Of a DNA stretch of 31,919 nucleotides, positions 1-20,064 are shown one piece after another. The translations under genes and the position numbers were made by a program. Source of the stretch: a virus (lineage: Duplodnaviria > Caudoviricetes); IMG/VR virus record IMGVR_UViG_3300014202_001552, positions 1 through 31,919 of that record; one strand, 5' to 3'. Positions within the stretch are counted from its first letter, which is position 1; the number at the start of each line of letters is the position of its first letter. The notes under the pieces are model-generated. The model saw only the letters and a list, made by a program, of their open reading frames with translations, was not told the DNA's origin and made no database searches.

Positions 1-231
1 TTACCTGGTCTCAGTTTCGTTGTTTTTTATAGCTTCGAGGTACTGGAGATATTCCAGTATCCCGATAATTTTAATGCGGTCAGTTTCTATTTTTTGAAGC
101 TGTTCTTCCAAAGCCTTACGGGTTTTCTGAATATCGATAACCACGGAATCAGAATCCAGATCCTGGCCATAAGCGGAAAATCCCAGCAGTGCGGGAATGG
201 TAAAAAATAGTAAAATAAATAGTTTTTTCAT
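1..231 (-). CDS. Small signal-peptide protein with coiled coil (possible fibre-associated chaperone)
   Basis: MKKLFILLFFTIPALLGFSAYG|Q signal-like N-terminus, then helical KALEEQLQKIETDRIKIIGILEYL; co-oriented in late operon. Confidence 0.7.
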   Translation of the reverse strand: MKKLFILLFFTIPALLGFSAYGQDLDSDSVVIDIQKTRKALEEQLQKIETDRIKIIGILEYLQYLEAIKNNETETR

Positions 232-243
232 GTTGCTGTTTAA

Positions 244-432
244 CTACCTCCTCTTGTTGTTATTTATATTTTTATAAAATTCAACAGCATCTTTATCGTA
301 AAAATCCATTTTTTGCTCAATCTTATCAAGCCTGTCGTTGGTTGATTTCCTCCACTGTAAATTGATGCCCCATTGGATACCGGCCTGAAAGATCAACCCT
401 GCAAATCCAATTATAATATATATAGTTTCCAA
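244..432 (-). CDS. Small membrane protein (N-terminal TM plus coiled coil; holin/XhlA-like topology)
   Basis: TTG start 3 nt after upstream stop; hydrophobic IYIIIGFAGLIFQAGIQWG then RLDKIEQKMD. Confidence 0.6.
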   Translation of the reverse strand: METIYIIIGFAGLIFQAGIQWGINLQWRKSTNDRLDKIEQKMDFYDKDAVEFYKNINNNKRR

Positions 433-435
433 AAC

Positions 436-1215
436 TTACGGTGTTTGAGTTACTAAAAAATTTCTTGTTACCCCATTTATTGTTAATGTTACAGTGCTTA
501 GTTGGCGGTCTACTGTCCCGCCTTCGCCTTCGGCTAGCCATAAACCACTTGCGGTTACAGAGCCAAGGGCACTTGCAAGAAAGCCCGGGGTTCCCTGTGT
601 TTTATACCCACCGGCATTTACTGTAAACCAGGTTGTTGCGTCAGTGTTGCCGAATATGATCTCACTTGATGCTAATGGATAAAAATTCCAGTTTTGGTCA
701 CTATCCTGACGGAATTTGAAAGAACTGGAATACTCTCCTTGTAAATTTATCTCATCCTTTACGAAAAGATCACCTGAGTATAAAGGGCGTGAGCCAACTG
801 AATCAACAGTCCCAATTGTTACAACGCCATACTGGTTTATGATTATCCTTTTAGCCCCTTGCGTCATAAGGTTGAACGGTATCCCCTGAAATAATCCAAA
901 ATTAAACTCTGTATCAAATAGAAAACCCTGACCCCGTGCGTAAACAGTACTTTTTAAATTACCCGAGGGCATTTCATGTAAACCTGTAAATGCAGTTCTA
1001 AATGAATCCAGCCCGATAGCCCTGTCTTTTATAGCTTGATCGATGTTAATCAAATTATCATTCACGCTATCCGCGCTGGGATAGTCACCCTCATTGTACA
1101 TCTTAAGGCCATAATAAACCGTGTAACCGGCGGGAGGATCAACCTGCGCTTGCAGATTTGTAATACAGATTACAAATAAACTTAAGATCAAAACTAATTT
1201 AACTTTATTCAACAT
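436..1215 (-). CDS. Tail-fibre-like protein with N-terminal signal peptide
   Basis: Directly after tape measure; AAGGAG RBS; MLNKVKLVLILSLFVICITNLQA|Q; TVYYGL...NDNLINIDQAIK resembles fibre N-terminal anchors; Gly-rich beta segments. Confidence 0.65.
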   Translation of the reverse strand: MLNKVKLVLILSLFVICITNLQAQVDPPAGYTVYYGLKMYNEGDYPSADSVNDNLINIDQAIKDRAIGLDSFRTAFTGLHEMPSGNLKSTVYARGQGFLFDTEFNFGLFQGIPFNLMTQGAKRIIINQYGVVTIGTVDSVGSRPLYSGDLFVKDEINLQGEYSSSFKFRQDSDQNWNFYPLASSEIIFGNTDATTWFTVNAGGYKTQGTPGFLASALGSVTASGLWLAEGEGGTVDRQLSTVTLTINGVTRNFLVTQTP

Positions 1216-1238
1216 TTTTTTTACTCCTTATTTTTGAA

Positions 1239-4200
1239 TTATCTTGGTTTGATTGTATCATCAACAACATTTTTACCAATTCTTTTTAAAGCTTGTGAAA
1301 TCTGCGGAAGAACATCCTTGTCGATCAGATTATTCCATTCCTGCTGTGAAAGTCCGCTGAGACTTTTATTATTAACGGTTGGGTTGACACCACCCAAATT
1401 AAAAATATTTGAAGAAACAGTACCCGCAAATCCAGCATCCGGAATATTGAGCTTTGGGATACTGATCGGTTTCATTTCCGTTTCAAGTCCTGCAATCCCA
1501 CCGCTAATTACATCCATAGCATCCTGGTTATTCAGGATGTATCCGTTAATATCGGGGATAAATGATTCCGGCCCTTCTTCACCAACGATATACGGCTGGC
1601 CCGCTTTAACCCTGCCGCCTTTAGCTTTGAAAATACCCCCCAAGAAACCAAGAACACCGCCCCCGCCTCCGCTTACAGCTTCGATAATGGTGGTGAATAG
1701 TTTACTTGCTGCAATTTCAAGAAGCTTACTTATTACGGTTTGAACAAACTGCTCAAACAGGCTGTTAGCCTGACCGAAAACACTTACCCATATTTGCTGA
1801 AAGCCTGCCTGGACTGCAGTCATAACAGTGCCCCATCCTGATTGAATCAGCCCAATCATTAAAGCCTGATTTTCAGCCTGTACTTTCTGGACTTCCTTAA
1901 CTCGCGCTATTTCAAGCTGTTTTAAAAGATCTTCTGTTACTTTTGTTTCGCCAAACTTCGCTTTAATATCATCTTTCTCTTTCTTGAATTTCTCGTTGAT
2001 ATTTTTTATTTTCAGGTTGTAGTCATTTTTCTCGTTATCCATACGAAGCTTTGCAAGATCCATTTCACCCTGGGTTGCAAACTTGGTGCTTAACGCTGCG
2101 AGATCTACCTGCTTTTGAGTATCCAGTAAAGCTTTTTGTTCCGATTGTTGGTCTGTTGTTAATTTAGACTTTGCAATTTTTTCATACATTGCAGTATAAG
2201 CTTTTTCAATATCAGCAGTTTCTTTATCGATGCCGGTTAATATTTTATTCTGTCTATCAGTAATAAATTTTGTAACATCGGAAATCATTTCATTGTTTTT
2301 TTCATTGGATTCCTTCTGTTTCTTAGAAGTCTCATCAGTTATTTTATTCATATCTGACTGTAGATCAACCAATTTATTATGAACTTTTTCCCTGTTTTCA
2401 TCGAACTGTAAAGCAGTAAGCAGGGTTGATAATTCAGTTTGATAGGATTGAATTATAGCAGCGCGCTTTTCAGCAACATCACCTGCAAGCTTAAGCTCAT
2501 TTTCCAGAGCGTCAAGCTTATCATCAAGCATTTCCTTTTCGATTTTTTCAGCTTCCTTATCCGCATCATCACCTTTGCCGGAGCCTTTATCTTTTCCAGT
2601 GGGGCTCTTTTTATTGTCTGATAATACCTGTTCTCTCAATCCAATCTCAGGCATACCAAGATCTTTTCTTGTAGGGGCTGTGACAAAACTATCTTTACTC
2701 TGGCTAAGTTCCCCTACAACATCTTGACTCTTGAACGCATCACCCACCATTGATAAAGCATTTTTAAAAGCATCAACCTTCGCCTCCCATGTTGAAGGGT
2801 TGAATACCAAATCTGCAAGATTAATTGTATTAAGAGACTTCATTACTTCCCATAAGCCGGTTAACGCTTTTATAACACGTGACACAACATTTATAATAGC
2901 ATCAAAAGCGGTTATCGTACCTTTTATATAGACTACTAACCCGGCAAAACCAACTTTGCCAACCCATTCCAAAGCGGCAACTAAATCTGAATTTTCTTTT
3001 TTGAAGTCCTGAAATGCCTTTATGATGAGTTTAGTAGATTCTGTTAAAGAATGAATATGCTCCCTTGCCAAAGTTATACCTTCTTTAACAAGAGTTTTAA
3101 AACTTTCCATAATTTGTAAAATATTTACTTTGATACCATCACCGCTTGAGACTAGATCCTTATATGCATTAACCAATTCAGCCTGGATAAAGCTTGCAAA
3201 GCTCTCAAGCATATTCCAAAGTTCATCTGCGGTTTCTTTTATCTTTTGAATATTTTGCTCACCACCAACAACCTCAACTATCCAAGCTTTTATGGAATCA
3301 ATGTTTGCAATAAATGCACCACCAAGACCGGCAAGTGCAGTTACAATTGCACCAACAAGAATAAGCGTACCGCCGGATGCAACACCCAGGGCCGCCAGGA
3401 TCGGGATGAGCGCAGCAAGCGCGCCACCAACACCAACAATGGCTACAATAGCAAGCTGCATTGTGGATGGGAGCTCCTTAAAAATATTCATAACGCCTTC
3501 GGCTGCGCCTTTAAAGAAATTAAATACCGGCACAAGCTGCGCGCCTATTTCTTCGCGGATGTTTTCCATTTGATTTTCAAACATCTGCATCTGGCCTAAA
3601 GTAGTGCCGGCCATTGATTGGCCGAGCCCTTTAAAATTATTATCCAGAATTTTTGAAAGAGCATTGATTTTTTCCATGCCGGTAGCCGTTTTCAAAAAAT
3701 CCTTTTCAGTTTCAGTCATTACAACACCCACACGGGTAAGCCCGGCAACCATCTCAGTGCCTGCGCCTTTACCGATCATTACAGCGATCTGCTGCAGTCC
3801 CATTCCACTTTGCCCTGCCTGTTGATAGGCAGCACTCAGATCAAGCATACGGGGAGTTAAAGCCTGTATTTGTTCGCCGGAAAGCTGAAAGGTGCCAAGC
3901 ATAGCCTGGGCGTTAATGATGTCGTCATCATCGAAGGGAGTTATTTTTGAAAGGTCTTCCGCCTGTTTAACCAGAGTGGAGAAGTAATCCTGCTGCCCTA
4001 AATTTTTCAAGTTGTTCTGGAGCTTCACCGAGGACTGTTCAGCCGCGCCGAAATCCTTTATAAAACCCATAACATAATCTTTTATCTGGGTAAAGGAATT
4101 CGTAACGCCATCAATGATCCCTTTTATAACGGTAAAATCAGCCATCTTATCAATGGCTGATTTAGATTCATTGCCCAGGTTCTTAACAGCTTCGCCACCC

Positions 4201-4376
4201 TCATTTGCAATGCCAGGAATTTCCTTTAAAGGGTTTGTATCAACATTGAACTGGAGGTTATTTACAAGGGCGTTTTTCCATTCATTAACAGCATCAAAGG
4301 CCTGGCCAAGCTCCGCACGGAACGATGGTATATCGACCGATAACTTTAACTGAGCTTCACCAAAATTTGCAGCCAT
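1239..4376 (-). CDS. Tail tape measure protein
   Basis: 1045 aa, helical, hydrophobic Ala/Gly/Leu middle, C-terminal AKGGRVKAGQPYIVGEEGPESFIP motif; follows chaperone genes. Confidence 0.93.
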   Translation of the reverse strand: MAANFGEAQLKLSVDIPSFRAELGQAFDAVNEWKNALVNNLQFNVDTNPLKEIPGIANEGGEAVKNLGNESKSAIDKMADFTVIKGIIDGVTNSFTQIKDYVMGFIKDFGAAEQSSVKLQNNLKNLGQQDYFSTLVKQAEDLSKITPFDDDDIINAQAMLGTFQLSGEQIQALTPRMLDLSAAYQQAGQSGMGLQQIAVMIGKGAGTEMVAGLTRVGVVMTETEKDFLKTATGMEKINALSKILDNNFKGLGQSMAGTTLGQMQMFENQMENIREEIGAQLVPVFNFFKGAAEGVMNIFKELPSTMQLAIVAIVGVGGALAALIPILAALGVASGGTLILVGAIVTALAGLGGAFIANIDSIKAWIVEVVGGEQNIQKIKETADELWNMLESFASFIQAELVNAYKDLVSSGDGIKVNILQIMESFKTLVKEGITLAREHIHSLTESTKLIIKAFQDFKKENSDLVAALEWVGKVGFAGLVVYIKGTITAFDAIINVVSRVIKALTGLWEVMKSLNTINLADLVFNPSTWEAKVDAFKNALSMVGDAFKSQDVVGELSQSKDSFVTAPTRKDLGMPEIGLREQVLSDNKKSPTGKDKGSGKGDDADKEAEKIEKEMLDDKLDALENELKLAGDVAEKRAAIIQSYQTELSTLLTALQFDENREKVHNKLVDLQSDMNKITDETSKKQKESNEKNNEMISDVTKFITDRQNKILTGIDKETADIEKAYTAMYEKIAKSKLTTDQQSEQKALLDTQKQVDLAALSTKFATQGEMDLAKLRMDNEKNDYNLKIKNINEKFKKEKDDIKAKFGETKVTEDLLKQLEIARVKEVQKVQAENQALMIGLIQSGWGTVMTAVQAGFQQIWVSVFGQANSLFEQFVQTVISKLLEIAASKLFTTIIEAVSGGGGGVLGFLGGIFKAKGGRVKAGQPYIVGEEGPESFIPDINGYILNNQDAMDVISGGIAGLETEMKPISIPKLNIPDAGFAGTVSSNIFNLGGVNPTVNNKSLSGLSQQEWNNLIDKDVLPQISQALKRIGKNVVDDTIKPR

Positions 4377-4382
4377 TAATTT

Positions 4383-4874
4383 TTATACCTCTTTAATTGG
4401 AATTCCTAAACCACTGAAAGCTTTTAACATCTTATCCTGCTTTTGTTTCTTCGCTTCAAGATCGGTACTTGGTTCTTTCTTCTTTGCCCCGGATCTCTTT
4501 TTTGTTTCCTGCCCGGCAGAGCCTTTAACCTTCTGGGCGCTTTCAAACTGCTCAAGGAGGCTGTGTTTGTATTCCTTACCAAACATCATTTGCCCGATCT
4601 TATCCAGGTGAAGCAATACCAGTTTTGTAGTGTGATTGATAAAAAAGGATCTTTCGTCACCTTCAAAACTTATTTTTTTTATATACAAAAGAGCGGTAAA
4701 GCTAAACGGTAATTCGGAATATGCGGATCTTAATTCTGTTGGATTACCGCCGGATACTTTAAGCGAGATCTCAAAGCCATTTAACGGCTTTACTTTGCTT
4801 TTGTTTTTGCGGGTTGGTTTGAGTTCACCTGGAATCTGCCCTTGGATTCGTTCATTCGCTGTTTGAAGAACCCG
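4383..4874 (-). CDS. Tail assembly chaperone C-terminal extension (gpT-like, reached by -1 frameshift)
   Basis: The -1 frame from the slippery site at 4874-4880 is open without stops into ORF 4383..4688; predicted fusion 258 aa. Confidence 0.8.
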   Translation of the reverse strand, partial: RVLQTANERIQGQIPGELKPTRKNKSKVKPLNGFEISLKVSGGNPTELRSAYSELPFSFTALLYIKKISFEGDERSFFINHTTKLVLLHLDKIGQMMFGKEYKHSLLEQFESAQKVKGSAGQETKKRSGAKKKEPSTDLEAKKQKQDKMLKAFSGLGIPIKEV

Positions 4875-5158
4875 AAAAAACTTAGGATCACCTCGGTAAA
4901 TAAAGAGAGTGTGCCATTTGAACGGAAGTAAGCGATCTTTTCCTCGTTTGTCATTGGCGCGTTATCAACCGGCTTTAACACATAAGCCATAAGCAGGCAA
5001 AGAGCGTTTGAATCATCCATAACTATTTGCTCCTGCTGCTGGGTATTACCTTTAAGCAGGTCAAGCCCTGTTTTTTCTTTGATGGTATCTATCTCATCAA
5101 AGGTAGGTTCTTTTGCTGTAAATTCTTTATCACCGATTTTAACTGTAAATTCATTCAT
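4790..5158 (-). CDS. Tail assembly chaperone (gpG-like)
   Basis: 122 aa upstream of tape measure, with in-frame T TTT TTC slippery heptamer. Confidence 0.82.
   Translation of the reverse strand: MNEFTVKIGDKEFTAKEPTFDEIDTIKEKTGLDLLKGNTQQQEQIVMDDSNALCLLMAYVLKPVDNAPMTNEEKIAYFRSNGTLSLFTEVILSFFGFFKQRMNESKGRFQVNSNQPAKTKAK
4874..4880 (-). other. Programmed -1 frameshift slippery site T TTT TTC
   Basis: Minus strand reads AGT TTT TTC GGG, X XXY YYZ pattern in correct phase. Confidence 0.8.
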
Positions 5159-5181
5159 GTTTTTGTTCTGTTTTATAATTT

Positions 5182-5210
5182 ATACAGGCCGGAAAAATTC
5201 CAGCCTGTAT
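5182..5210 (-). promoter_or_regulatory. RNA hairpin between lysis cassette and tail chaperone
   Basis: ATACAGGCTGGAA-TTT-TTCCGGCCTGTAT, 13-bp stem with one G-U pair; no strong U tract. Confidence 0.55.
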
Positions 5211-5300
5211 TTAAAAAAATTTTAGTAACAAATCAAGCATGCCCCAGGCAGCAAGCAGGAAAACTACAACATAGCCCGCTACGGCAAATAAATCTTTCAT
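5211..5300 (-). CDS. 29-aa hydrophobic micropeptide (not in ORF track)
   Basis: MKDLFAVAGYVVVFLLAAWGMLDLLLKFF; ATGA overlap with endolysin stop; fills the gap. Confidence 0.6.
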   Translation of the reverse strand: MKDLFAVAGYVVVFLLAAWGMLDLLLKFF

Positions 5301-5959
5301 GCTTCAAGCTGGTCTAATAATTCCTTTGATTTCTTAACCTGGAAACATGGGCAGGCTTTGCCAAGATTGTAATTATTGTGACCGCTAACGTCATGTTTTG
5401 TAAGATTCCTTCTTTTGATTATTTCCCTGGCTTTGGCGATCAAACCGGCCTTCTGTTTTTCGGTCATAAATTCACCAAAAGGTGCATTCGGTTTGTGGTC
5501 ATCACCCCGGGCAATATATGCAAGCGCGATAGTGCCAACATTATAACCGGCACAATGTGCGCCAATTACATCTTCGTCCCTGCCGGGATGGCAGTCACCT
5601 TCTCCATCGATCAGGTAATGGTAGCCAATATCGGAAAATCCGCGCGCGATGTGGCCTGCGCGAATATCCTCAACAGTGGCGTTATCATTTGATGCGGTGA
5701 TATGAATAATAAGTTCATTGACCTCACGGGTATATGACTGCTGCTTTTCAAAACCCTGCGTTTCGGCTTTTTGAACAGAAAGCTTTCCAACAATACCATC
5801 AGCAACAAGTCCACTTTCGCGCTGCCATTCAATAGTTTCAGCCTGCGTTCTGCCGCCAAATTTACCATCGATCTTACCGCAATCATGGTCGTTATCATTT
5901 AAAAACCGCTGCCATTTTTTTACCTCAGTGCCCTGGGAGCCGCGCTGGATTAATTTCAT
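5297..5959 (-). CDS. Endolysin: peptidoglycan-binding domain plus N-acetylmuramoyl-L-alanine amidase (Amidase_2, T7-lysozyme-like)
   Basis: RGSQGTEVKKWQ...DGKFG...ADGIVG PG-binding motifs; IIHITA, DIGYHYLI, GAHC, GHN...KACPCF Zn-amidase motifs. Confidence 0.93.
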   Translation of the reverse strand: MKLIQRGSQGTEVKKWQRFLNDNDHDCGKIDGKFGGRTQAETIEWQRESGLVADGIVGKLSVQKAETQGFEKQQSYTREVNELIIHITASNDNATVEDIRAGHIARGFSDIGYHYLIDGEGDCHPGRDEDVIGAHCAGYNVGTIALAYIARGDDHKPNAPFGEFMTEKQKAGLIAKAREIIKRRNLTKHDVSGHNNYNLGKACPCFQVKKSKELLDQLEA

Positions 5960-5962
5960 TGT

Positions 5963-6151
5963 TTAGTCTCCTTTGGGTTTTTCTGCATTGATCCCGGTGC
6001 CGGTTGTATCATAATCTTTTGTAAAGAGAGCAACGCCTGTGATAGCAAGCCCTGTTACTATCTCTTCGGGCAGGTCTAACCCTGAATATTTATTTACCAG
6101 GATTATCGCAAACCCGATAAATGCGGCGAGTGTAGTTTTGAAGTTTTTCAT
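5963..6151 (-). CDS. Putative holin (2 TM)
   Basis: 62 aa, two hydrophobic segments, charged C-tail, immediately upstream of endolysin. Confidence 0.7.
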   Translation of the reverse strand: MKNFKTTLAAFIGFAIILVNKYSGLDLPEEIVTGLAITGVALFTKDYDTTGTGINAEKPKGD

Positions 6152-6186
6152 ATAAAAAAGTTTCCTTTCGTGATTAATTTTTTTGG

Positions 6187-6663
6187 TTACTCGAAAAGGG
6201 TTACGAGATCTTCGGCATATTTTATAGCCTTATCCAGCCCGGCAAGTATCAGCTTTATTGCCGGAAGCTGCGTTCGTTCATACAGGAGAGTGAGTCCTTC
6301 TCTCGCTTTATAAGCCCATCCAAGGTATCTCTTGGCTGCCCAATATGACGAGGAATGAATTACATAACTCTGACCTATTCTTACCTGGTCAGCGGCTTCC
6401 GTAGTCCACTGCAATACCTGTTTGTTACACCTTGCGTCCATCTCAAGGCAGATCTGTTTTGTTTCGGGGGTGTTGTACACAAAGGAGTTTTCCTTTTCGG
6501 ATGTCCAGTAATCAACACCGTTTTCGGCGGCTTCGATGCCCTGAGTAATTACAGGTGAATCCACAGAGTTTTCCAGTCCAACATCCTGCCCCGCTACCAT
6601 TGAAGATGAGAATAAAAACACCAACATTAAAAGCATGTAAAGTTTGCTGCGTAAATTTGCCAT
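6187..6663 (-). CDS. Exported hypothetical protein in lysis cassette
   Basis: MANLRSKLYMLLMLVFLFSSSMVAG|Q; acidic N-half, amphipathic helical C-terminus. Confidence 0.6.
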   Translation of the reverse strand: MANLRSKLYMLLMLVFLFSSSMVAGQDVGLENSVDSPVITQGIEAAENGVDYWTSEKENSFVYNTPETKQICLEMDARCNKQVLQWTTEAADQVRIGQSYVIHSSSYWAAKRYLGWAYKAREGLTLLYERTQLPAIKLILAGLDKAIKYAEDLVTLFE

Positions 6664-6679
6664 ACAGATAGATCCTTTC

Positions 6680-6982
6680 TTATTTTATAAATGCTGAAAA
6701 ATCCAATTTCAATAGTAAAGCAAGCAAAGCAATAATCGTAAGAGATGCGATAACTATGTCCTTTATATCCCTTGCGGTATTCCCTAATTTTTGCAGTGGT
6801 GTTTTTGGCTGGTTACCGCTTAATAATATTCCATGCATGTCATCAACCTTATTTTTAAGTTCGATCTTATCGTTAAGGTGGCGGATGGAATCCTTAATTT
6901 CACTTACTTCTTTAGCAAGATTTTCAAAAATCGTTTCGATGATCGCCAGCCTTTCCGGTGTTGTCTTTCCAGTTGATTTCAT
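6680..6982 (-). CDS. Coiled-coil protein with C-terminal TM (XhlA/holin-like topology)
   Basis: ERLAIIET...LAKEVSEIKDSI coiled coil, IVIASLTIIALLALLL TM. Confidence 0.6.
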   Translation of the reverse strand: MKSTGKTTPERLAIIETIFENLAKEVSEIKDSIRHLNDKIELKNKVDDMHGILLSGNQPKTPLQKLGNTARDIKDIVIASLTIIALLALLLKLDFSAFIK

Positions 6983-7000
6983 GATGAATTAAAAATTAAT

Positions 7001-8035
7001 TTACGGCGCGCTTGTTATAACTTCCCATGCAGAGCCGTTATAAAAATTCAATTTGCTTGTGGTTGTGTTTGCGATGATCCAGCCAAACGCCGGAGTTAAT
7101 AGATCTCTTGCAGTCTCAGTCATTGGAGGCGGCCTCATCGGGAGATTAAAATCAAAACTCGTCGTTGAAACTGTAGCCCTTGCAACTCCGTTTGTAACAA
7201 GCTGCAAGCTATCCGCACCTGGCCGGTAGATTCCCGTATTTGGATCATTGGCAAAACTAAAATGCACTGTCGATAGCGTTGGAGTAGAATGTATATAAGG
7301 CTTTCCTGTAACTGAAATACCTCCAAATAATGTTCCTGTGGTTTGTATATACATCTGTTCAGTATTTTGAACTGCGAAAAAAATTGCGTTAGCTGAACTT
7401 GTTCCATACACGCTCATATAACTTGTTTGATCTAATCTGCCGATAACTGTATTTTCTGTTGAAGTATTTAAAATATTCATTGTTCCCGTAACTCTTGGCA
7501 ATATGGTATTTGTTCTTACGGTATCGGCAACCATCTCATCGGTAATGGAAACACTATCAAAAGTTTGCGGCTCGGTAAATGAATTCGCGCTATCTTTATG
7601 GGCATAACCATAAGCATTAAATGTCGCACCGGATGCTCTTTTCCCGCCGGGTCCAATATCAACATTATCGCCATACAGAACCTGGCTGAAAACGGAATCA
7701 CTGACCGCATTGCGAAAGATCCTCTTACCCTGGAACTCAAACCTTAGTTTGGAGCCCGGACCAACCCTGGCATAACTTGTGCTATCCAGCATCGTAGAAT
7801 CTTTTTTGGAGAGCCAAACTTCCAGGTATCCGGTTTCACTGTCATTGGTTATAATTCCCCGCATAATTGTACCCTGTATATACGGCGAGATCAAAGTATC
7901 CCTTGATGTCTGTATGTACTTTGCGGTTTCTTTCTTCTGGTAAAGCCTCAACTGCGAGAATGAGCCGGCACTTATAAAAAGCAATAAGACCGCAGCAACT
8001 AAATACTGCAGTCTTATATTTAAATTTTTATTCAT
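7001..8035 (-). CDS. Tail-fibre-like protein with N-terminal signal peptide
   Basis: RLQYLVAAVLLLFISAGSFS|Q; ANSFTEPQTF, FSFANDPNTGIYRPGADSLQLVTNGVAR and PPMTETARD...IIANTTTSKLNFYNGSAW fibre-type motifs. Confidence 0.7.
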   Translation of the reverse strand: MNKNLNIRLQYLVAAVLLLFISAGSFSQLRLYQKKETAKYIQTSRDTLISPYIQGTIMRGIITNDSETGYLEVWLSKKDSTMLDSTSYARVGPGSKLRFEFQGKRIFRNAVSDSVFSQVLYGDNVDIGPGGKRASGATFNAYGYAHKDSANSFTEPQTFDSVSITDEMVADTVRTNTILPRVTGTMNILNTSTENTVIGRLDQTSYMSVYGTSSANAIFFAVQNTEQMYIQTTGTLFGGISVTGKPYIHSTPTLSTVHFSFANDPNTGIYRPGADSLQLVTNGVARATVSTTSFDFNLPMRPPPMTETARDLLTPAFGWIIANTTTSKLNFYNGSAWEVITSAP

Positions 8036-8073
8036 ATAAATTTTTGAGTTTAAAAAATTAAAAAGATCTTTTG

Positions 8074-8610
8074 TTAAGCGAGTTTATCCATCTGGATTTC
8101 CATTGCCAAGCCTGCGGCATCGGGATCAGGAAGAGCCATACACTCAAGCTTGTAAACCCACTCCTTATCGTTCTGGAATGCAAGCTTGAAGTCTCCGGAA
8201 ATCTCAACCCTGGTAAAAATAAACCTGATCTTCTTCTCCTTGTTATACACATTAGGCACGGTGTATTTAAGCTTGAAGTTTGGAATATCTTCAATGACAT
8301 TACCAAAGATCTTGATAGTCTCTTTTTCAGCGTCATCGATTATATCTGCCGGATCTACGCCCAGGGCAATAGCAAGATTCCTTGCCTGAGTTTCCACAAG
8401 CAGAATATTAAACTTGAATTCTTTATCGATGGTAAAACTTTTGATAGGCATTAAATACCTGCCGTCTTTTACGAAAAGCTTTTTAAGCTTCGCGTCAAGC
8501 TCTGCATCACGGCAAGCTCCTACGTTCACATAATCATTATCATCCGGCCCCTGCAGTTCGCAATCGCCTTCGCCAATGTTTATGTTCTGTTCTGTGAATT
8601 CTCCGGCCAT
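8074..8610 (-). CDS. Major tail tube protein
   Basis: 178 aa, NINIGEG start, beta-rich; follows neck genes; GGAG RBS. Confidence 0.75.
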   Translation of the reverse strand: MAGEFTEQNINIGEGDCELQGPDDNDYVNVGACRDAELDAKLKKLFVKDGRYLMPIKSFTIDKEFKFNILLVETQARNLAIALGVDPADIIDDAEKETIKIFGNVIEDIPNFKLKYTVPNVYNKEKKIRFIFTRVEISGDFKLAFQNDKEWVYKLECMALPDPDAAGLAMEIQMDKLA

Positions 8611-8673
8611 ATTGGTTAATCTCCGTTTATTTTTCTAATAAAAATGTTTGGTGAAACAGGAATCAAGTGGATA

Positions 8674-9177
8674 CTACTGTTTTCGTATCATAGAAACCCT
8701 GCCGTAGAATACCACATCTTCCCCGTTACCGGCGAGCCCTTTTACTTTAAAATATAAATATCTCATAGGCAGCCCGTTCCACTTAACCAACACTGTATCG
8801 TTTATGGGTTTGCCCGTGTATAAGCCTGTAGTATCCCAGCCCTGCATTAAAGTCCAGTAGGTTGTATCGGTAGTCAGATAGTTGCTCAGGTATGCGTTAA
8901 CCCTAAAGTTTTTTACCGCGCTGCCTGTTGCGTAAAAGCTAAAGCTTGCAAGATAATCCGCATATGGAAGAACGCTTATAGAGTTCGTTTTCCCTTCAAG
9001 CAACGAGTCGGATGAATACAAAACCGAAAACTCCGCAACGCTTGTGGAATTAGAAGTGGGCGAGCTCTGTGAAATGTTGACAGATGACTGCGCCTTTACT
9101 TCTGACTGCTTATCCAGCGAAGGAAACACTGTGAAATATATTGCGAAAATCAGTAATACTCTTAAGATGGATTTCAT
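8674..9177 (-). CDS. Exported beta-rich hypothetical protein (possible decoration protein)
   Basis: MKSILRVLLIFAIYFTVFP...VKA|Q; ends MRYLYFKV...VVFYGRV, suggestive of a jelly-roll; AGGAG RBS. Confidence 0.6.
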   Translation of the reverse strand: MKSILRVLLIFAIYFTVFPSLDKQSEVKAQSSVNISQSSPTSNSTSVAEFSVLYSSDSLLEGKTNSISVLPYADYLASFSFYATGSAVKNFRVNAYLSNYLTTDTTYWTLMQGWDTTGLYTGKPINDTVLVKWNGLPMRYLYFKVKGLAGNGEDVVFYGRVSMIRKQ

Positions 9178-9199: not shown

Positions 9200-9655
9200 T
9201 TAATTTGGTTTATACATGGCTGTTATTTTAACGGGTATTGGCATTACATAAAACGATCTTGATTCGATACTCATAAGCCCGGGATCTGCTTTCCCAAAAG
9301 CTACACTTGCCACACCGTTATAAGTTTTACTTCTTGCTGCAATGATCCTGACTACTTTTTCTGATGCTGCCTGGAGCGTATCTCTAAAACCTTTGAGATT
9401 CTCGTTTGTTAATTTGTTATCCGGCAGCGCCTTTATTAAAACATTAACTATATACTCTTCGGCTTTTTTTGTTGAGTTAACATTTGATGCAACCTGCTGG
9501 AAGTCAAACGGCTCTTCGATAATTACGATCGCAAATTCTTTATCCGCAGGTATTGTAATATAATCTGTATCTGAGAGGTAATCGCATCCTTCAAGCTCGT
9601 TACCTGCGCCAAGCTGTTCATTAATTGCGGTATGTAAAAATTCATGTCCTAACAT
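9200..9655 (-). CDS. Putative tail terminator/completion protein
   Basis: 151 aa acidic alpha/beta protein after gp10-like gene. Confidence 0.55.
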   Translation of the reverse strand: MLGHEFLHTAINEQLGAGNELEGCDYLSDTDYITIPADKEFAIVIIEEPFDFQQVASNVNSTKKAEEYIVNVLIKALPDNKLTNENLKGFRDTLQAASEKVVRIIAARSKTYNGVASVAFGKADPGLMSIESRSFYVMPIPVKITAMYKPN

Positions 9656-10237
9656 TTATCCCTTTTGAAACTCTGTTTGAAATTGTGATGCAACCCAGTC
9701 AACATTTTGATTCAGTGCCATTCTTAAAAAAGGCAGCCCTTTTGTGCCATGAATCGAAATCTTTTTCGCAATCGCGTATGCAACGCTGTTCACTAAACTG
9801 TGAGCTTCCTTCCCCTCTTCACGATGCGCAAGCCTATCCCTTTTGTAATTGAATTTCTTGCGAAGGAACCCTTTGTTAACCTTATCCCCGCCGTACTTCA
9901 AGAAACCTTTTTGCATTATCCATAACCGGATGGGTCTTAACGGTGGGAAATGCGGCTTACAATCTTCATGAACGTAAATGGCATAAGGCACATTCGCGCC
10001 AACTCCCAAAACCCCAATTATCTTTCCGGCTTCGCGGTAAACATCTTCACGCAGGTTCTTTCTAAGCTCATGCGTTGAATTGGTTGCGAACTTCTTGCCG
10101 TTCTGGCCTGCCGTTGAAAGAATATCCTCGGCTGTATTTTTCATTTTTAAAAGAACGCGCCTCAAAAAAACTTCTATCTGATCTTCTACCTGGCTGAGAA
10201 ACTGTTCACGACTATCGGTAACTATTATTTCAGCCAT
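9656..10237 (-). CDS. HK97 gp10-like neck/tail-completion protein
   Basis: ELRKNL...VGANVPYAIYVHE...PHFPP...HGTKGLPFLRMAL motifs. Confidence 0.8.
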   Translation of the reverse strand: MAEIIVTDSREQFLSQVEDQIEVFLRRVLLKMKNTAEDILSTAGQNGKKFATNSTHELRKNLREDVYREAGKIIGVLGVGANVPYAIYVHEDCKPHFPPLRPIRLWIMQKGFLKYGGDKVNKGFLRKKFNYKRDRLAHREEGKEAHSLVNSVAYAIAKKISIHGTKGLPFLRMALNQNVDWVASQFQTEFQKG

Positions 10238-10246
10238 TAAACTTTT

Positions 10247-10723
10247 TTATATTGCAGACATTTTAAGTGATCCGGCTTGAACTGTATCTGGGTTACAATC
10301 TTCATCGGTATCGGTATCGGTAACATAATCCTCAAGTAACTCCTCTGCCCGTTTGCGGTACTCAAAACTAAGCTCACTAATATCGTTTTGGCTTAATACC
10401 TCTTTCCTTGAATCTCCGAAGCCGGTTGATTTTACAAACCCTGCGCCGGATGAATTTACATTGAGAGGGCCAACCGCATATGCCAGAACCATATATGCTT
10501 CTGCGGTTTGCATAAGCTCGGTATCAGTGTCATCATAATCGGCATCAGCAGCCCACTCATCACCGCTTGCAAAAAGTTCATAGAGCTCTTTGCCCATGAA
10601 CTTCTTTACTTCTTTTCGTGCTTGTGGAAAGAACGCTTCTACTGTTGCTTCATCATCTACGGTAGGGATGTTACCCAGAACTTTTACCTTTGCAACATCC
10701 GCTATGTAACCTTCAATTGCCAT
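10247..10723 (-). CDS. Putative head-tail adaptor
   Basis: 158 aa acidic helical protein directly after capsid and tRNA. Confidence 0.6.
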   Translation of the reverse strand: MAIEGYIADVAKVKVLGNIPTVDDEATVEAFFPQARKEVKKFMGKELYELFASGDEWAADADYDDTDTELMQTAEAYMVLAYAVGPLNVNSSGAGFVKSTGFGDSRKEVLSQNDISELSFEYRKRAEELLEDYVTDTDTDEDCNPDTVQAGSLKMSAI

Positions 10724-10738
10724 TTTAGATTTTTTTAG

Positions 10739-10810
10739 TAGCGGAGAGGTGAATCGAACACCTGTATTTCAGGTCATGAACCTGACGAGATACCACTTCT
10801 CTACTCCGCG
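10739..10810 (-). tRNA. tRNA-Met(CAT), initiator (fMet)-like; CCA not encoded
   Basis: CGCGGAG TA GAGA-AGTGGTA-TCTC G TCAGG-TTCATGA-CCTGA AATAC AGGTG-TTCGATT-CACCT CTCCGCT A; complete cloverleaf, C1xU72 mismatch, A11-U24. Confidence 0.9.
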
Positions 10811-10820
10811 ATAATACTTT

Positions 10821-11741
10821 TTATGCTTTTTTTGCGAGAATTAATGCTTCGCTTATAGCGTAGTTAGCATCAAGCTCTCCGGCTATGACGAAGTCTTTTG
10901 CCCTTGCCTTAATATTCCTTTCGGACTCTACGGTCATGGTTAAACCATAGCCGAGATGAAAGTTTCCGACTTTTGAAAGCATGATCTTGTCATTTTTCAG
11001 TTTTGAAAACTTGACAAGCTTAACACCTTCATAATACAAACCTGATTTAGCAACCATCATCTGATCGCCCAGGGTAGTATTTCTGCCAGCCATTTCCCTC
11101 TGGTACTTTTTATAAAGACTCGGGGCCAGGTAAATCCTGAGAAGATCTTCGTCACCTGAATATTTTTCAGGCATAGCATCCAGCATACTGGCGAATATAA
11201 CCGAAAGCTTATCGTCATTATTGAATGCGATCTCATCATTGACATCATCATCGGCAAGAGCTTTTATGATAATACCATCGTTGATCGAATGGAACGGGTA
11301 ATCAACCTCGCTAAGGGAAGTATCCCCGTTAAGAGCAAGGTTAAATGCGTCAACCATATACTGGCCGGAAAATTTTTTATTTATAAACTCCTCGGCTCCG
11401 CTGCGCATTATATTACGTCTCAAAAACTTATCGGTAATACGGTAGTGAACCGTTACTTCGACAGGTTTTAATTTGCGCCTTTTGATTGTCATGCCAACGG
11501 GATCAGTAACCTCCACGCCTTCCTGACCTTTACGCATATTTTCTTCGGTCAGATCCGCAATGTCAATGTTCATTTCCGATGCAGTAACCTCGTTAACGAC
11601 AAACTCCTCATTGAGGACATTGACCTGCTCTACTCCGGTGTCAATAAAAGTCTGGAGCTCTTCGGGTTCCATCTGGCCGCCGGTTGCGGTACTTATGTCG
11701 GCTTTTACAATATCTTCTAATTCTGCGTTTTCAAGAGGCAT
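10821..11741 (-). CDS. Major capsid protein (PBSX XkdG/P2-family-like, HK97 fold)
   Basis: 306 aa after protease; GGQMEPEELQTFID, LRRNI, LALNGD, INDGII motifs; AAAGGAG RBS. Confidence 0.88.
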   Translation of the reverse strand: MPLENAELEDIVKADISTATGGQMEPEELQTFIDTGVEQVNVLNEEFVVNEVTASEMNIDIADLTEENMRKGQEGVEVTDPVGMTIKRRKLKPVEVTVHYRITDKFLRRNIMRSGAEEFINKKFSGQYMVDAFNLALNGDTSLSEVDYPFHSINDGIIIKALADDDVNDEIAFNNDDKLSVIFASMLDAMPEKYSGDEDLLRIYLAPSLYKKYQREMAGRNTTLGDQMMVAKSGLYYEGVKLVKFSKLKNDKIMLSKVGNFHLGYGLTMTVESERNIKARAKDFVIAGELDANYAISEALILAKKA

Positions 11742-11787
11742 GCTCTACTTACTCCTTTATTTTTAAAAAAATTTAGTTTTTATTTTC

Positions 11788-12909
11788 TTACTGCTTTGGC
11801 TTTGTGGGACCGCCAAGCCATTTAAATATTTTTTTCTTTCCGGCATCTTCGCCTTTATCAATAGGCTCATCAGCTATTTGCGCCGAACCTTTGGAAGATT
11901 TCTTAAGCTTTTCGTTCTCTTCCTTAAGCTTTTTAAGCTCTTCATCTTTTTCGGTTACAATTTTGTCATGCTCGGTTTTGCTTACGTTTTCCATGGTGGT
12001 AGAATTTTTATTTTTTATAAATTTTTCTGCTTTCTCTGTGGCTGTTTCTGCAAGGGCAATAATATCGCCAAGCGCATCATATGCACTCTGGATCTTTTTA
12101 AGATTAGCTGCGCTGATAGTTTTACCGGCTTTAGCTATGATACTTTTTACTACATCGATCTCAATGCTTTCAAGCTTTGCCTTTGCCTGTTCAAGATTTT
12201 CGATCATAACAGATGCTTTATCTTCCAGCGAGATCGTGTCATTCCATATCACGTCATAGTTAGCAGAACTTAAAGCATCTATAATAGTCATATGGTCAAG
12301 CCTGGCATACCGGGCGTTGAAATCTTTTATAAGCCTGTCCTGTTCGGAGAGCTCGGAATCAGCACCAAAATTTTTAACAAGCCTGTTGATAAAACGTTTA
12401 TACAAGGCATCCTCCTGTTTGGCAACGTCTTCAATTTCCTTTTTAGCAAATCCATACATACTGAGACCGGTATAAGTACCATCCTTGATACCTTTCCAGA
12501 TCTCATCGTTATCTACTTTTATAGCCACATACCAGGAGCCGTCCTTTTCATTCGGGAAATATTCATGGCTGCCTTTTATGATTGCAGACTCTACTATAGT
12601 ACAGCCTTCTGCAATTGTGAGGTTATGCTGGGTATCAACGGCGTTGGTTTTGGATTTACGGAGGAAGTTGTGAGCCGCCTTTTCGATCTCGGCAGCATCA
12701 GAATAATCTTCATGAGCATCTATTTCATCCGGCGAGTAAACTATGCCGTAGATGATCCTTTTTTCTTCATCAACCTTTGCAATGGATACCTGGCGCTCGA
12801 AGCTGGGTGATTTGGCACCAAAAGTTTTGATAACAAACTCTTTCAGGTTCGCGCCTTTATCCACAATGCTGATGAGCGAAATGTCAATATCTTTAAGTTT
12901 TGCCGGCAT
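11788..12909 (-). CDS. XkdF-like prohead serine protease with C-terminal scaffold region
   Basis: ISIVDKGAN, KVDEEKRIIYGIVYSP..DAH.D, VDTQH, GSW, IKDGTYTGLSMYG; coiled-coil C-terminus. Confidence 0.9.
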   Translation of the reverse strand: MPAKLKDIDISLISIVDKGANLKEFVIKTFGAKSPSFERQVSIAKVDEEKRIIYGIVYSPDEIDAHEDYSDAAEIEKAAHNFLRKSKTNAVDTQHNLTIAEGCTIVESAIIKGSHEYFPNEKDGSWYVAIKVDNDEIWKGIKDGTYTGLSMYGFAKKEIEDVAKQEDALYKRFINRLVKNFGADSELSEQDRLIKDFNARYARLDHMTIIDALSSANYDVIWNDTISLEDKASVMIENLEQAKAKLESIEIDVVKSIIAKAGKTISAANLKKIQSAYDALGDIIALAETATEKAEKFIKNKNSTTMENVSKTEHDKIVTEKDEELKKLKEENEKLKKSSKGSAQIADEPIDKGEDAGKKKIFKWLGGPTKPKQ

Positions 12910-12961
12910 GAATGCTTATGTTTTTGTAAAATTGTTTGACTTGTATTGTCAAGAATTAATA

Positions 12962-13012
12962 CAAAAGTACTAACAACGGCTTGCCTTTGTCACCTTACTT
13001 TTTGTTAAGGTG
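12962..13012 (-). promoter_or_regulatory. Putative late promoter with upstream dyad (Mor/C-type activator site)
   Basis: TACTTTTG (TAnnTTTG) at 12962-12969; CACCTTA-N8-TAAGGTG at 12991-13012. Confidence 0.55.
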
Positions 13013-13095
13013 TGAAGATTTGTTTATTTGATTGATTTGTGATGCAAGGAAATATTAGAAATTATACCAAGTGGTGTGATACCGGATGGTATAAT

Positions 13096-13124
13096 AAAAA
13101 AAGGCGATCAGTTGACCGCCTTTT
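13096..13124 (-). terminator. Intrinsic terminator ending the immunity/moron transcripts
   Basis: Minus strand AAAAGGCGGTCA-AC-TGATCGCC-TTTTTTT. Confidence 0.8.
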
Positions 13125-13147
13125 GGGAAAAGTTTTACACGCGTTAT

Positions 13148-13390
13148 TTAATGACCTCCTGAAATATTTACACCGCTGCCATTCTCAAATCTTATAGTTT
13201 TCCAGTTACACTTTGTTTCCGGAGTTACTGTAAGCCGATACAGAATCATAACAATTTCATCGTATTCTTTTTCTTCGCCCATTGCTTCGTATGCTTTTTT
13301 CGTTGTATTGACTATCTCAGGGTGGCGATTTATGAAATGCATGAATTCTTTAAAGCTGTTAAAAGAATTATCTATGACTATTGTATTCAT
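13148..13390 (-). CDS. Hypothetical moron protein (80 aa)
   Basis: ATG ORF with its own promoter and a downstream terminator. Confidence 0.65.
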   Translation of the reverse strand: MNTIVIDNSFNSFKEFMHFINRHPEIVNTTKKAYEAMGEEKEYDEIVMILYRLTVTPETKCNWKTIRFENGSGVNISGGH

Positions 13391-13395
13391 AATTA

Positions 13396-13425
13396 CAAAT
13401 ATAATAGAAAAAATAAATTTGTCAA
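13396..13425 (-). promoter_or_regulatory. Promoter for the 80-aa moron (probably leaderless)
   Basis: TTGACA (13420-13425), 16 bp, TATATTTG (13396-13403); ATG 7 nt after the -10 hexamer. Confidence 0.65.
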
Positions 13426-13426
13426 G

Positions 13427-13867
13427 TTAATAGCTTTTAATTTCTTTCCAACTTCCCCCTTCATTTTTACTTAATGCATGCAATCCGCCGGAGGTTTTCT
13501 TCATCATAGCCACATAATACGAAAACAGTTTATTCTTTTCTGATGCAGTAATCTTATCGTCAAATTGTTTTTTAAAATAATCTCTTGCGATAGATCTATC
13601 CACAAAATAATTTATCGTTATGAAACTTTTAGATTTATTTAATTCCATTAATCTATCATTCACTTTAATAACATGGTCCGCATCCTTTATATAGACATCA
13701 TATAACAACGCACCGCCGGAAGATCTGTCATTTACAATTTCATAGAACGGAATATCGTCTTTTTTAGATTCGGTTTTCATTTCGACTATATCGGTATTTT
13801 TGTTTCTTGTGCATGAAGAGATTAAGATTAAACCACACGCAATTAATGCAACAATAATTATTTTCAT
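13427..13867 (-). CDS. Lipoprotein in immunity operon (superinfection-exclusion candidate)
   Basis: MKIIIVALIACGLILISS|C lipobox-like signal. Confidence 0.7.
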   Translation of the reverse strand: MKIIIVALIACGLILISSCTRNKNTDIVEMKTESKKDDIPFYEIVNDRSSGGALLYDVYIKDADHVIKVNDRLMELNKSKSFITINYFVDRSIARDYFKKQFDDKITASEKNKLFSYYVAMMKKTSGGLHALSKNEGGSWKEIKSY

Positions 13868-13874
13868 GAACGTT

Positions 13875-13988
13875 TTATAAAAATTTATCCCAAAGAAATT
13901 TTAATAATGCAAGTATTATAACAGCGATAACAATAATCCCAATCACTCTATTATTACCAAGCGGATTAATACCAAAAGGCCTCCTCAT
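13875..13988 (-). CDS. 37-aa single-TM micropeptide (not in ORF track)
   Basis: MRRPFGINPLGNNRVIGIIVIAVIILALLKFLWDKFL; ATGA overlap with repressor stop. Confidence 0.6.
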   Translation of the reverse strand: MRRPFGINPLGNNRVIGIIVIAVIILALLKFLWDKFL

Positions 13989-14668
13989 GCAACATCCCGG
14001 ATAATTTTTACAACCTTGTAAATTTTTTGTACGCGATCAAGCTTCACCTGAACGGGTGGATATTTTGTGTTGATACTGTAAATCATAATAATATCCTTAT
14101 CTGCTTTATCTCTGTAGAATAATTTCACACTTGCCTCAGTTGTGCCGGGTGAACTTTTATACAATAATAGTACGGCTGTGTAATCTTTAATATTATCGAA
14201 TGGAATTTCAGCGCAGACAACATGGTCGTTTTTTTCAATGTAAGGTTTCATGCTGTCGCCGGCCGCTTTGACCGCAAAAATATATTTATAGCTTTTCAGC
14301 CCGTCAACAATTATAAAATTCTTTTCGTTGTGCTCCCATTGAGTTGCCGGCAGCCCGCAATCAGCCAATGCGATCTCAGGAACACGTTTAAAATGTTTAC
14401 CATATTTTTCAATTAACTCCTTCGGCTGCTCGGCTTCAAACATCTCTTCATTATCATCAAAAAACCAATTTGCATTAACACCCAATTTTTTCCTGACGAT
14501 AGCAAAAAACTCCGGCATTGGCTTAGTGCCATGCTCATACCTCTGAATATTTTGATGAGTTGTATTTAACAACACAGCAAATTCTTTAAGTGTGAGATCA
14601 CCCCTTAGTTTTCGTATTTTGGTTGAAAGTTCCAGTTCCCTAATTTGTGTACTACAAACATAAACCAA
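13985..14668 (-). CDS. CI/LexA-type repressor (HTH_XRE plus S24 peptidase); true start possibly CTG at 14635
   Basis: KIRKLRGDLTLKEFAVLLNTTHQNIQRYEHG HTH; ADCG putative cleavage site, GDSM Ser, ASVK Lys. Confidence 0.92.
   Translation of the reverse strand: MVYVCSTQIRELELSTKIRKLRGDLTLKEFAVLLNTTHQNIQRYEHGTKPMPEFFAIVRKKLGVNANWFFDDNEEMFEAEQPKELIEKYGKHFKRVPEIALADCGLPATQWEHNEKNFIIVDGLKSYKYIFAVKAAGDSMKPYIEKNDHVVCAEIPFDNIKDYTAVLLLYKSSPGTTEASVKLFYRDKADKDIIMIYSINTKYPPVQVKLDRVQKIYKVVKIIRDVA
14636..14649. repeat. Operator-like box 1 TTCCCTAATTTGTG
   Basis: Exact 14-bp match to 14831-14844 and 14862-14875. Confidence 0.8.
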
Positions 14669-15491: not shown

Positions 15492-15974
15492 ATGAACAAT
15501 CGCAGAACAAATTACCCGGTAGTACTCACATTTATTTTAATATTTTTCTTTTGTATTTGTATGCTTGCTTCGCTTGCATCCTGCGGCGAAAGTTTAACCG
15601 GCACATCTTCCGGCTATCTAAACGAAACTAAAACATCCACCGGAGATTCGCTTTCGATTTACACTTCGGAAATCGGAACGGTCAACAAACAAAATAATCA
15701 TGATATAATTTCAGCGGGTCAGAACATCCGTATAGAATTTGACGCTGAAATAAATTTTGCACAGCGTTACTCACACAAATATGTTCAGCTTACTTACATG
15801 AAAGATAACCAGGTGCACTTTGCTTTTCAGAAATACACCAATGAAATACCTGGGCATCATGTTGTTGAGATCAACGATTCATTTGATGCGGTAAACCTTT
15901 ACATAAAGATCTACATTAATAATTCACCAAATGCATTTATCCGGATCACCAACATTTCAATAACTCAAAACTAA
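15492..15974 (+). CDS. Putative lipoprotein
   Basis: Hydrophobic N-terminus ending LASLAS|C; AAAGGA RBS. Confidence 0.6.
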   Translation: MNNRRTNYPVVLTFILIFFFCICMLASLASCGESLTGTSSGYLNETKTSTGDSLSIYTSEIGTVNKQNNHDIISAGQNIRIEFDAEINFAQRYSHKYVQLTYMKDNQVHFAFQKYTNEIPGHHVVEINDSFDAVNLYIKIYINNSPNAFIRITNISITQN

Positions 15975-20051: not shown

Positions 20052-20064
20052 AATATAACCAACT

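Follow-up and report, generated by a model that had tools for sequence, protein, structure and literature searches.

Tailed-phage particles are held to be completed in the cytoplasm. Why, then, would a tailed phage place export signals on proteins encoded among its tail and lysis genes? This question is raised by virus record IMGVR_UViG_3300014202_001552, whose 31,919 bases (the window) hold a Mu-like transposable phage with transposase A, ATPase B, Gam and GemA all present. Five minus-strand open reading frames (ORFs) of its late operon begin with Sec-type leaders that end at Gln. Export of all five products is well supported by their sequences, and we judge it moderately probable that three of them (436..1215, 7001..8035 and 8674..9177) follow a common course: Sec export, probable O-glycosylation in the periplasm, and docking at lysis on a virion built in the cytoplasm. 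The features concerned are:

436..1215, minus strand: predicted exported protein of 259 amino acids (aa) resembling a tail fibre or receptor-binding protein; leader 1-23, Gln24, N-terminal anchor, beta-rich body
1030..1146, minus strand: anchor segment of that protein (residues 24-62), a candidate helix bundle with a putative virion-docking role
7001..8035, minus strand: predicted exported accessory protein, 344 aa; leader 1-27, beta domain, fibre-like C-terminal part
8674..9177, minus strand: predicted exported protein of 167 aa, small and beta-sandwich-like; leader 1-29, motif conserved at four positions; candidate decoration protein
6187..6663, minus strand: predicted exported protein of 158 aa, encoded in the lysis cassette; leader 1-25, an amphipathic helix at the C-terminus and no glycosylation motif
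1..231, minus strand: predicted exported 76-aa coiled-coil-like protein; leader 1-22

Leaders vary and conservation begins at the glutamine

An earlier interpretation made from the DNA letters (the sequence-only reading) had singled out these five ORFs, and we recovered all of them at the coordinates and strand, and with the junctions, that it gave: AYG/Q after residue 22 (1..231), LQA/Q after 23 (436..1215), VAG/Q after 25 (6187..6663), SFS/Q after 27 (7001..8035) and VKA/Q after 29 (8674..9177). Each leader has a basic n-region, a hydrophobic core, small residues at -3 and -1 and Gln at +1, as the Q-rule describes for Sec substrates of signal peptidase I. Leaders were called with a heuristic of our own rather than with SignalP, and Gln receives a bonus in its choice of site. 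It flagged 11 of the 58 ORFs in the window and placed Gln at +1 in just the five, a count that is weak and not an independent test because the heuristic favours Gln.

Conservation that begins at the Gln offers an independent and stronger test. In the 436..1215 family the leader is hydrophobic but divergent in all six members, and an invariant run begins at Q24; in the 8674..9177 family the leader is variable in 10 of 10 members (the window member included), and Q30 is invariant. The pattern rests on these two families, the other three ORFs having few or weak homologues. Across four related phages, Gln stands at +1 in 17 of 18 late-operon leader-bearing proteins (hand-picked). On average, Gln occupies +1 in 71% of cases for Bacteroidetes species and in 77% for Ignavibacterium album (PMC5837995; this and the other papers are cited from excerpts). 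A flanking TonB receptor with a CarboxypepD_reg-like domain also has a leader followed by Gln, which fits a host of the Fibrobacterota–Chlorobiota–Bacteroidota (FCB) type.

No membrane-like segment follows the leader in any of the five proteins (highest 19-residue hydropathy, 0.5-1.2), none has a lipobox and, as the sequence-only reading had stated, our heuristic finds no leader on the capsid, tube, tape measure or endolysin. That reading had also named internal starts as a way in which its proposal could fail. Of the five ORFs, 1..231 and 8674..9177 have no further Met within the first 60 residues, and the next Met of 436..1215 (residue 39) falls within the conserved anchor. In 6187..6663, Met 10, 13 and 22 lie within the leader and a shorter start is possible. 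Purine runs resembling Shine-Dalgarno sequences precede the first codon in four of the five; 7001..8035 has none, as is the case for several core genes.

The five ORFs also sit in the operon like its other genes, with upstream gaps of 12-38 bp and G+C content (GC) of 0.38-0.45, unlike a moron at 13148..13867 (GC 0.31-0.34). A reading of the five as morons of the Lom/Bor/Cor kind was rejected on spacing, on GC and on the lack of any excess of promoter or terminator matches.

A fibre-like protein and its anchor family

The whole case is strongest for 436..1215, which lies directly after the tape measure gene and for which a role as a virion accessory protein is well supported by its family. A profile of that family drew 182 clusters, and the N-terminal anchor is present in 137 among the 150 listed. 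A hydrophobic leader precedes the anchor in 129 of these clusters, four begin at the anchor itself and four were set aside as probable late start calls; the profile had leader columns, so that 129:4 is not a fair frequency. Just ahead of the anchor, 120 of the 129 leader-bearing members have a small residue and Gln.

Family members carry BppL_N, depolymerase, esterase and tail fibre or spike modules. Of the four members without a leader, three have PHROG matches to tail spikes or fibres; the window protein itself has no PHROG or Pfam match. Where viral or metagenome loci have enough flanking DNA, the anchor gene comes after tape measure, hub, baseplate or nozzle-like genes, L024 being the least clear, and in contigs judged sipho-, myo- or podo-like from gene order it occupies the tail or baseplate region. 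Two relatives that could be read to the end of their tail genes show no leaderless fibre gene. A quick, unresolved anchor tree requires at least two changes, and a single origin is possible. Searches of PDB sequences with the anchor family and the 8674..9177 family matched nothing, and 436..1215 has no match among cultured phages.

Some myovirus-like loci have one or two tandem leader-bearing anchor genes (L048:2236-3196, L041:257-3843 and L029:9941-13253); in L041 and L029 these are followed by a leader-bearing protein of 877-940 aa.

Predicted exported chains are enriched in an O-glycosylation motif

Two elements of our analysis go beyond the sequence-only reading: an excess of O-glycosylation motifs and a candidate dock for the fibre. 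Bacteroidota O-glycosylate exported proteins at D-(S/T)-(A/I/L/M/T/V) (PMC10897501, PMC11969387); among the sites measured in Prevotella intermedia, DSL, DSV, DSI and DTL rank as the four most frequent (PMC10897501). Shuffling predicts 3.6 such motifs in the 878 residues of the five mature chains, which hold 15 (p 0.0005); the other 47 ORFs of the window hold 19 against 22 expected. Taken singly, 7001..8035 has 8 motifs (1.5 expected), 8674..9177 has 4 (0.5), 436..1215 has 2 (1.0) and 1..231 has 1 (0.2), neither of the last two being significant alone; 6187..6663 has none. Motif content is above chance for 7001..8035, 8674..9177 and the 436..1215 family, and not for 6187..6663.

The same pattern appears in the relatives, in which the 18 late leader-bearing proteins hold 58 motifs against 15.9 expected. 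No excess is seen in 37 core virion proteins (34 against 42.8), and the counts are 29 against 32.7 in 11 cyanophage fibre-region proteins, 11 against 8.5 in four leaderless fibre-like proteins, and 2 against 3.2 in eight exported moron or early proteins. Exchanging D for N or E, as a control, gives a motif that is not in excess. The position after DS or DT is skewed towards L, V and I (and A after DS), and NS, DA and DG have no such bias. Ten homologues of 8674..9177, 42-53% identical, hold 38 motifs against 6.0 expected, at four aligned positions that are conserved across them.

The conserved motif of the anchor is D-S-V in the window protein (residues 49-51; 1063..1071). Across the anchor family, 124 of 129 leader-bearing members have the motif, whereas all four leaderless members have other residues at that place (Fisher p 1e-5, although the members are not independent of one another). 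Past the anchor, the leader-bearing members hold 525 motifs against 200 expected and the leaderless members 12 against 9.7. Taken together, these counts describe a real and specific excess that points to periplasmic exposure, and the exported chains are probably O-glycosylated.

Motif-rich genes of two further kinds were seen. Membrane-anchored spanin-like proteins, which are possibly glycosylated too, are encoded after the endolysin at L007:8511-9251, L008:8606-9265, L009:8547-9200, L011:9843-10475, L027:11894-12442, L039:11877-12344 and L046:11230-11721. In distant phages that lack the anchor, motif-rich fibre-like genes with leader and Gln lie past the tail genes (L010:15137-16255 and L011:5866-7834); L011 additionally has a leaderless fibre.

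A Tyr-Gly tail is a candidate dock

The leaderless tail gene that adjoins the anchor gene often ends in a tail resembling Gly-Tyr-Gly-x-x-Tyr-Gly-x-x-Tyr-Gly. Within the last 25 residues, 16 anchor loci (some of them close kin) have the strict pattern in 10 of their 284 genes, and 21 control loci have it in 1 of 501; looser forms occur in four more of the 16. Sixteen chosen carriers (looser forms included), ranging from 158 to 1,121 aa, fall into seven groups unrelated by BLAST.

A scan of DNA for the repeat alone, covering 2 of the 64 parts of the viral collection, yielded 120 loci, of which 49 have the repeat near a stop and 34 of these have a next ORF. One new locus emerged in which the next gene has a leader, Gln and the anchor (65 bits, against less than 10 for each of 501 control ORFs). 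Seven next genes encode leaderless DUF2793 proteins (7 of 7 match, 6 above the cut-off), and many other matches are low-complexity Gly-Asp-Gly-Tyr proteins. One carrier upstream of a DUF2793 gene is homologous to the JBD30 hub (PDB 8RK3, E 4e-87), and its C-terminal tail aligns with that of the hub. The receptor-binding trimer of JBD30 forms a helix bundle that receives the C-terminus of the hub at its centre (PMC11445458). By analogy with that joint, backed by co-occurrence, the anchor may dock on the Tyr-Gly tail.

The other four predicted exported proteins

The sequence-only reading had grouped all five proteins into a possible virion-accessory system. Beyond 436..1215, for which the anchor and the modules of its family bear this out, such a role is plausible for 7001..8035 and 8674..9177. 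The beta domain of 7001..8035, about 110 residues long, is common to five relatives, where it comes after the tube gene, and the protein weakly matches phrog_30742, a tail fibre (E 6e-4). Foldseek returned no match at E 0.001 or better for its structural model, and a search for shorter homologues of its N-terminal domain found none. The 8674..9177 gene lies between a putative tail terminator and the tube gene; its Atlas model has a predicted local distance difference test (pLDDT) of 0.52, the nearest neighbours are mostly viral hypothetical proteins, and all leads from the Atlas searches scored under 0.9.

For 6187..6663 a virion-accessory role is unlikely: the gene lies in the lysis cassette, between two holin-like genes, and its product has no glycosylation motif. 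It is present in the window and in the closest relative; in the other three relatives a membrane-anchored gene comes after the endolysin, and neither the window nor the closest relative has that gene. From this and from its position, we read 6187..6663 as a likely exported periplasmic lysis accessory.

For 1..231, positional counterparts with weak identity follow the fibre gene in two relatives, and a role as a fibre chaperone or envelope protein is possible. Cultured phages gave no meaningful match for protein P0042 or for mature 1..231. Between this gene and the fibre lies a 62-aa gene (244..432, minus strand) that starts at TTG and encodes a short coiled coil as well as a hydrophobic segment at the N-terminus; a counterpart is absent at that place in L031 and L009.

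A proposed route of assembly and its rivals

These data suggest the following sequence of events. Late-operon genes with a conserved leader and Gln, as seen in the sequence, would send fibre or decoration proteins through the host Sec pathway; signal peptidase I would cleave the leader, and the exposed Gln would, under the Q-rule, be cyclised to pyroglutamate. In the periplasm, a glycan would be attached at D-(S/T)-(A/L/V/I/M/T), sites for which excess and conservation are observed. The Tyr-Gly tail of the leaderless neighbour, seen in relatives, would insert into the helix bundle of the fibre trimer in the manner of JBD30, and virion and exported fibres would presumably meet only at lysis, after holins breach the inner membrane.

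Additional support comes from Cellulophaga phage phi18:3 (KC821620), whose gp085, gp086 and gp087 have a leader and Gln and carry the GenBank note 'structural protein, annotation based on experimental MS/MS proteomics' (tandem mass spectrometry; particle purity cannot be judged). By analogy, this annotation supports export of virion-associated proteins in this host group. The sequence-only reading had offered three fates for the exported proteins. Of these, entry into the virion at lysis agrees best with the evidence, namely the fibre anchor, the dock-like tail next to it and the annotation of the phi18:3 proteins; roles as decoys or at the cell surface remain as rivals. A broader picture, which we put forward tentatively and with somewhat less than even confidence, is that tailed phages of FCB-type hosts combine a cytoplasmic core with periplasmic, pyroglutamate-capped fibres or decorations that the host has glycosylated. 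The two parts would come together at lysis by a portable joint, in which the fibre trimer grips a three-fold Tyr-Gly tail with a glycan close by, and this joint would have been grafted onto sipho-, myo- and podo-type tails.

Several observations weigh against assembly at lysis of exported, glycosylated fibres. The AlphaFold2 models of 436..1215 (pLDDT 34) and 7001..8035 (pLDDT 39) are too low in confidence for use. Four exported host proteins beside one prophage (L031) show no motif excess (4 against 3.2 expected). Seven membrane-anchored spanin-like proteins hold 23 motifs against 4.2, so the excess indicates periplasmic exposure and not, by itself, virion membership. By our own pattern, 5 of the 129 leader-bearing anchors lack the motif; the leaderless members are few (four), and the anchor tree is unable to show independent losses. 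The candidate dock gene lies beyond the window and is inferred from relatives, two of the 16 anchor loci (L024 and L030) have no dock-like tail, and the hub-like protein of 803-827 aa in the longer relatives could itself be receptor-binding. Homology of the anchor to DUF2793 is weak at best, with no Pfam match and an hhalign score of 12.3 (1 of 40 shuffles higher), and comparison of the anchor with JBD30 gp54 was not significant. Finally, phi18:3 belongs to another phage family, its gp085 and gp086 are not homologous to 7001..8035, and gp085-gp087 have one motif each against about three expected; being below chance, they indicate that export need not serve glycosylation.

The rival that survives best, which we nonetheless consider unlikely, is that the proteins are exported but never enter the virion, remaining in the envelope or being released as soluble decoys, which would block the receptor of the phage or shield its progeny. 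Lambda Lom and Bor, Cor and T5 Llp are exported products encoded beside tail genes. The periplasmic spanin-like proteins are just as rich in the motif, the slots are variable (other relatives have unrelated exported proteins, one of them SGNH-like, and L034 has none before the tube gene), and Q-rule genes of Porphyromonas gingivalis phages have been taken as envelope modifiers (PMC10367356). Against this stand the conserved fibre anchor, which in its leaderless versions belongs to spikes or fibres, the co-occurrence of the dock-like tail on cytoplasmic tail proteins, the lack in the five proteins of a lipobox, membrane segment or moron signature, and the structural annotation of the leader-bearing phi18:3 proteins by mass spectrometry.

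Quite unlikely, in our view, is that the proteins are exported and join the virion but remain unglycosylated, export serving folding, pyroglutamate capping or timing, and the D-S/T motifs acting as helix caps or beta turns. The low motif counts of the phi18:3 proteins and the lack of an excess in the host proteins beside L031 agree with this idea, and the anchor motif stands where a helix would be expected to begin. It accounts poorly, however, for leaderless anchors that differ at the motif place and leaderless fibres without an excess, for a bias at the third motif residue that agrees with measured specificity, and for four motif positions kept among divergent 8674..9177 homologues. We consider it very improbable that the leaders are anything other than cleaved Sec signals (removed by a phage protease, as proposed for capsid leaders in other phages (PMC10367356), retained as membrane anchors, or skipped by internal starts such as the in-leader Met codons of 6187..6663, with fibres assembling in the cytoplasm), given conservation that starts exactly at Gln in two families, the small residue and Gln before most leader-bearing anchors, and a motif excess that suggests extracytoplasmic modification.

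If assembly at lysis is true, infectivity would be switched on only at release, the glycan of the last host could shape host range or shield the particle, and leader-bearing tail-operon genes, usually set aside as morons, would require re-annotation. Together the anchor and the Tyr-Gly tail would make a compact joint of two parts, open to study in vitro although the phage itself is uncultured; for the export step, phi18:3 is a cultured model.

Genome layout and neighbouring genes

The plus strand of the window encodes the Mu-type transposase, ATPase, Gam, GemA, terminase, portal and head morphogenesis protein; the minus strand encodes the head protease, capsid, neck genes, tail tube, amidase endolysin and tape measure protein. 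Since the window shows no sheath gene, we take it to be from a transposable siphophage. Its other main features are:

1239..4376, minus strand: tape measure protein, without leader (phrog_28, E 3e-16)
5297..6982, minus strand: lysis cassette, with amidase endolysin (5297..5959), holin-like gene (5963..6151) and a gene with coiled coil and membrane segment (6680..6982)
8074..8610, minus strand: major tail (tube) protein, without leader
9200..12909, minus strand: head protease, major capsid protein and three neck genes, all without leaders
18126..20952, plus strand: Mu-type transposase A and ATPase B, which mark the phage as transposable

Holin-like roles were assigned from hydrophobicity and from the holin match of a positional counterpart in L006.

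Four relatives (G001-G004, three of them classed as proviruses) have transposases 39-42% identical to that of the window and an identical divergent layout, and leader-bearing genes of this sort occupy matching slots of their tail operons. In two longer relatives, the order is tape measure, leader-bearing fibre, small leader-bearing gene, a hub-like protein of 803-827 aa and a Dit-like protein of 158-164 aa; in L031, host genes come after the Dit-like protein. 'Hub-like' and 'Dit-like' are labels by size and position, and neither protein has a PHROGs match. Because the longer relatives carry these genes there, about 3 kb of tail genes past position 1 are probably missing from the window.

The morphogenesis genes are split between two divergent arms (11788..14668 and 30975..31919), with protease-to-tail genes on one side of the repressor and terminase, portal and F at the far end of the other arm, a layout common to G001-G004. 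Mis-assembly as its source was rejected, the four relatives having it too. The capsid and protease (10821..12909) are like PBSX XkdG and XkdF, and their best cultured matches are Bacillus and methanogen viruses at 23-26% identity. The low-GC moron slot (13148..13867, minus strand) lies between the repressor and the late operon and is closed by a terminator-like hairpin (13099..13124); in each relative the slot holds an exported protein or lipoprotein without motif excess (L060:282-764, L061:233-685, L062:1485-2033 and L063:15717-16262). The early region contains a lipoprotein-like gene (15492..15974, plus strand), for which G001 has a comparable slot, and another small gene with a leader (16394..16675, plus strand). 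The 236-aa ORF at 22446..23156 (plus strand) is a long imperfect repeat with units like Arg-Ala-Tyr/Leu-Ala-Tyr/Arg-Ala-Asp, and its opposite strand is open, with Pro-Asp-Lys repeats. A D12-class adenine methyltransferase (27262..28062, plus strand) lies between the small and large terminase genes, and G002 and G003 have methylase-like ORFs after the large terminase gene. Elsewhere, L009:4866-6667 holds two tail-tube paralogues in tandem (390 and 182 aa).

Comparison with known systems

The nearest earlier description is that of Porphyromonas gingivalis prophages, which have five Q-rule genes of unknown function, taken as outer-membrane modifiers (PMC10367356). These are likewise phage genes with signal peptides that expose Gln; the passages available from that paper make no mention of a fibre, dock or glycosylation. 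In phi18:3, too, a phage of a Bacteroidota host has structural-annotated proteins with leader and Gln. The motif, its preference at +2 and the Gln at +1 are those of Bacteroidota O-glycosylation and the Q-rule (PMC10897501, PMC11969387, PMC5837995), which are described there for cellular exported proteins, whereas such a system in the host of this phage is presumed. Bdellovibrio MAT fibres include signal-peptide fibre proteins, some with an S74 chaperone known from phage spikes (PMC10769870); likened here by description, they differ in being encoded by the cell and not parts of a virion. The idea of signal peptides on crAss001 fibres found no support, the word 'signal' occurring 0 times in PMC10172136. 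In the literature that we covered, mostly the main text of freely accessible papers, available in part, we found no description of an exported, host-glycosylated tailed-phage fibre.

The closest mechanical parallel is the gp53-gp54 joint of the JBD30 hub (PDB 8RK3; PMC11445458). There, too, in a transposable siphophage, a leaderless tail protein has a Gly-aromatic C-terminal tail that docks a trimeric receptor-binding protein, and that tail aligns with the Tyr-Gly repeat of a hub homologue. However, gp54 has no leader, and its DUF2793-like N-terminus is not detectably homologous to the anchor. In the relatives here, by contrast with JBD30, the tail sits on the Dit-like protein, and the fibre has a leader and glycosylation motifs. 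The anchor may work like the JBD30 joint, and we do not class it as a member of the DUF2793/gp54 type. The feature is real and conserved; judged from sequence, it appears to be a new variation on the way in which tailed phages attach their fibres, one of the two partners apparently being exported.

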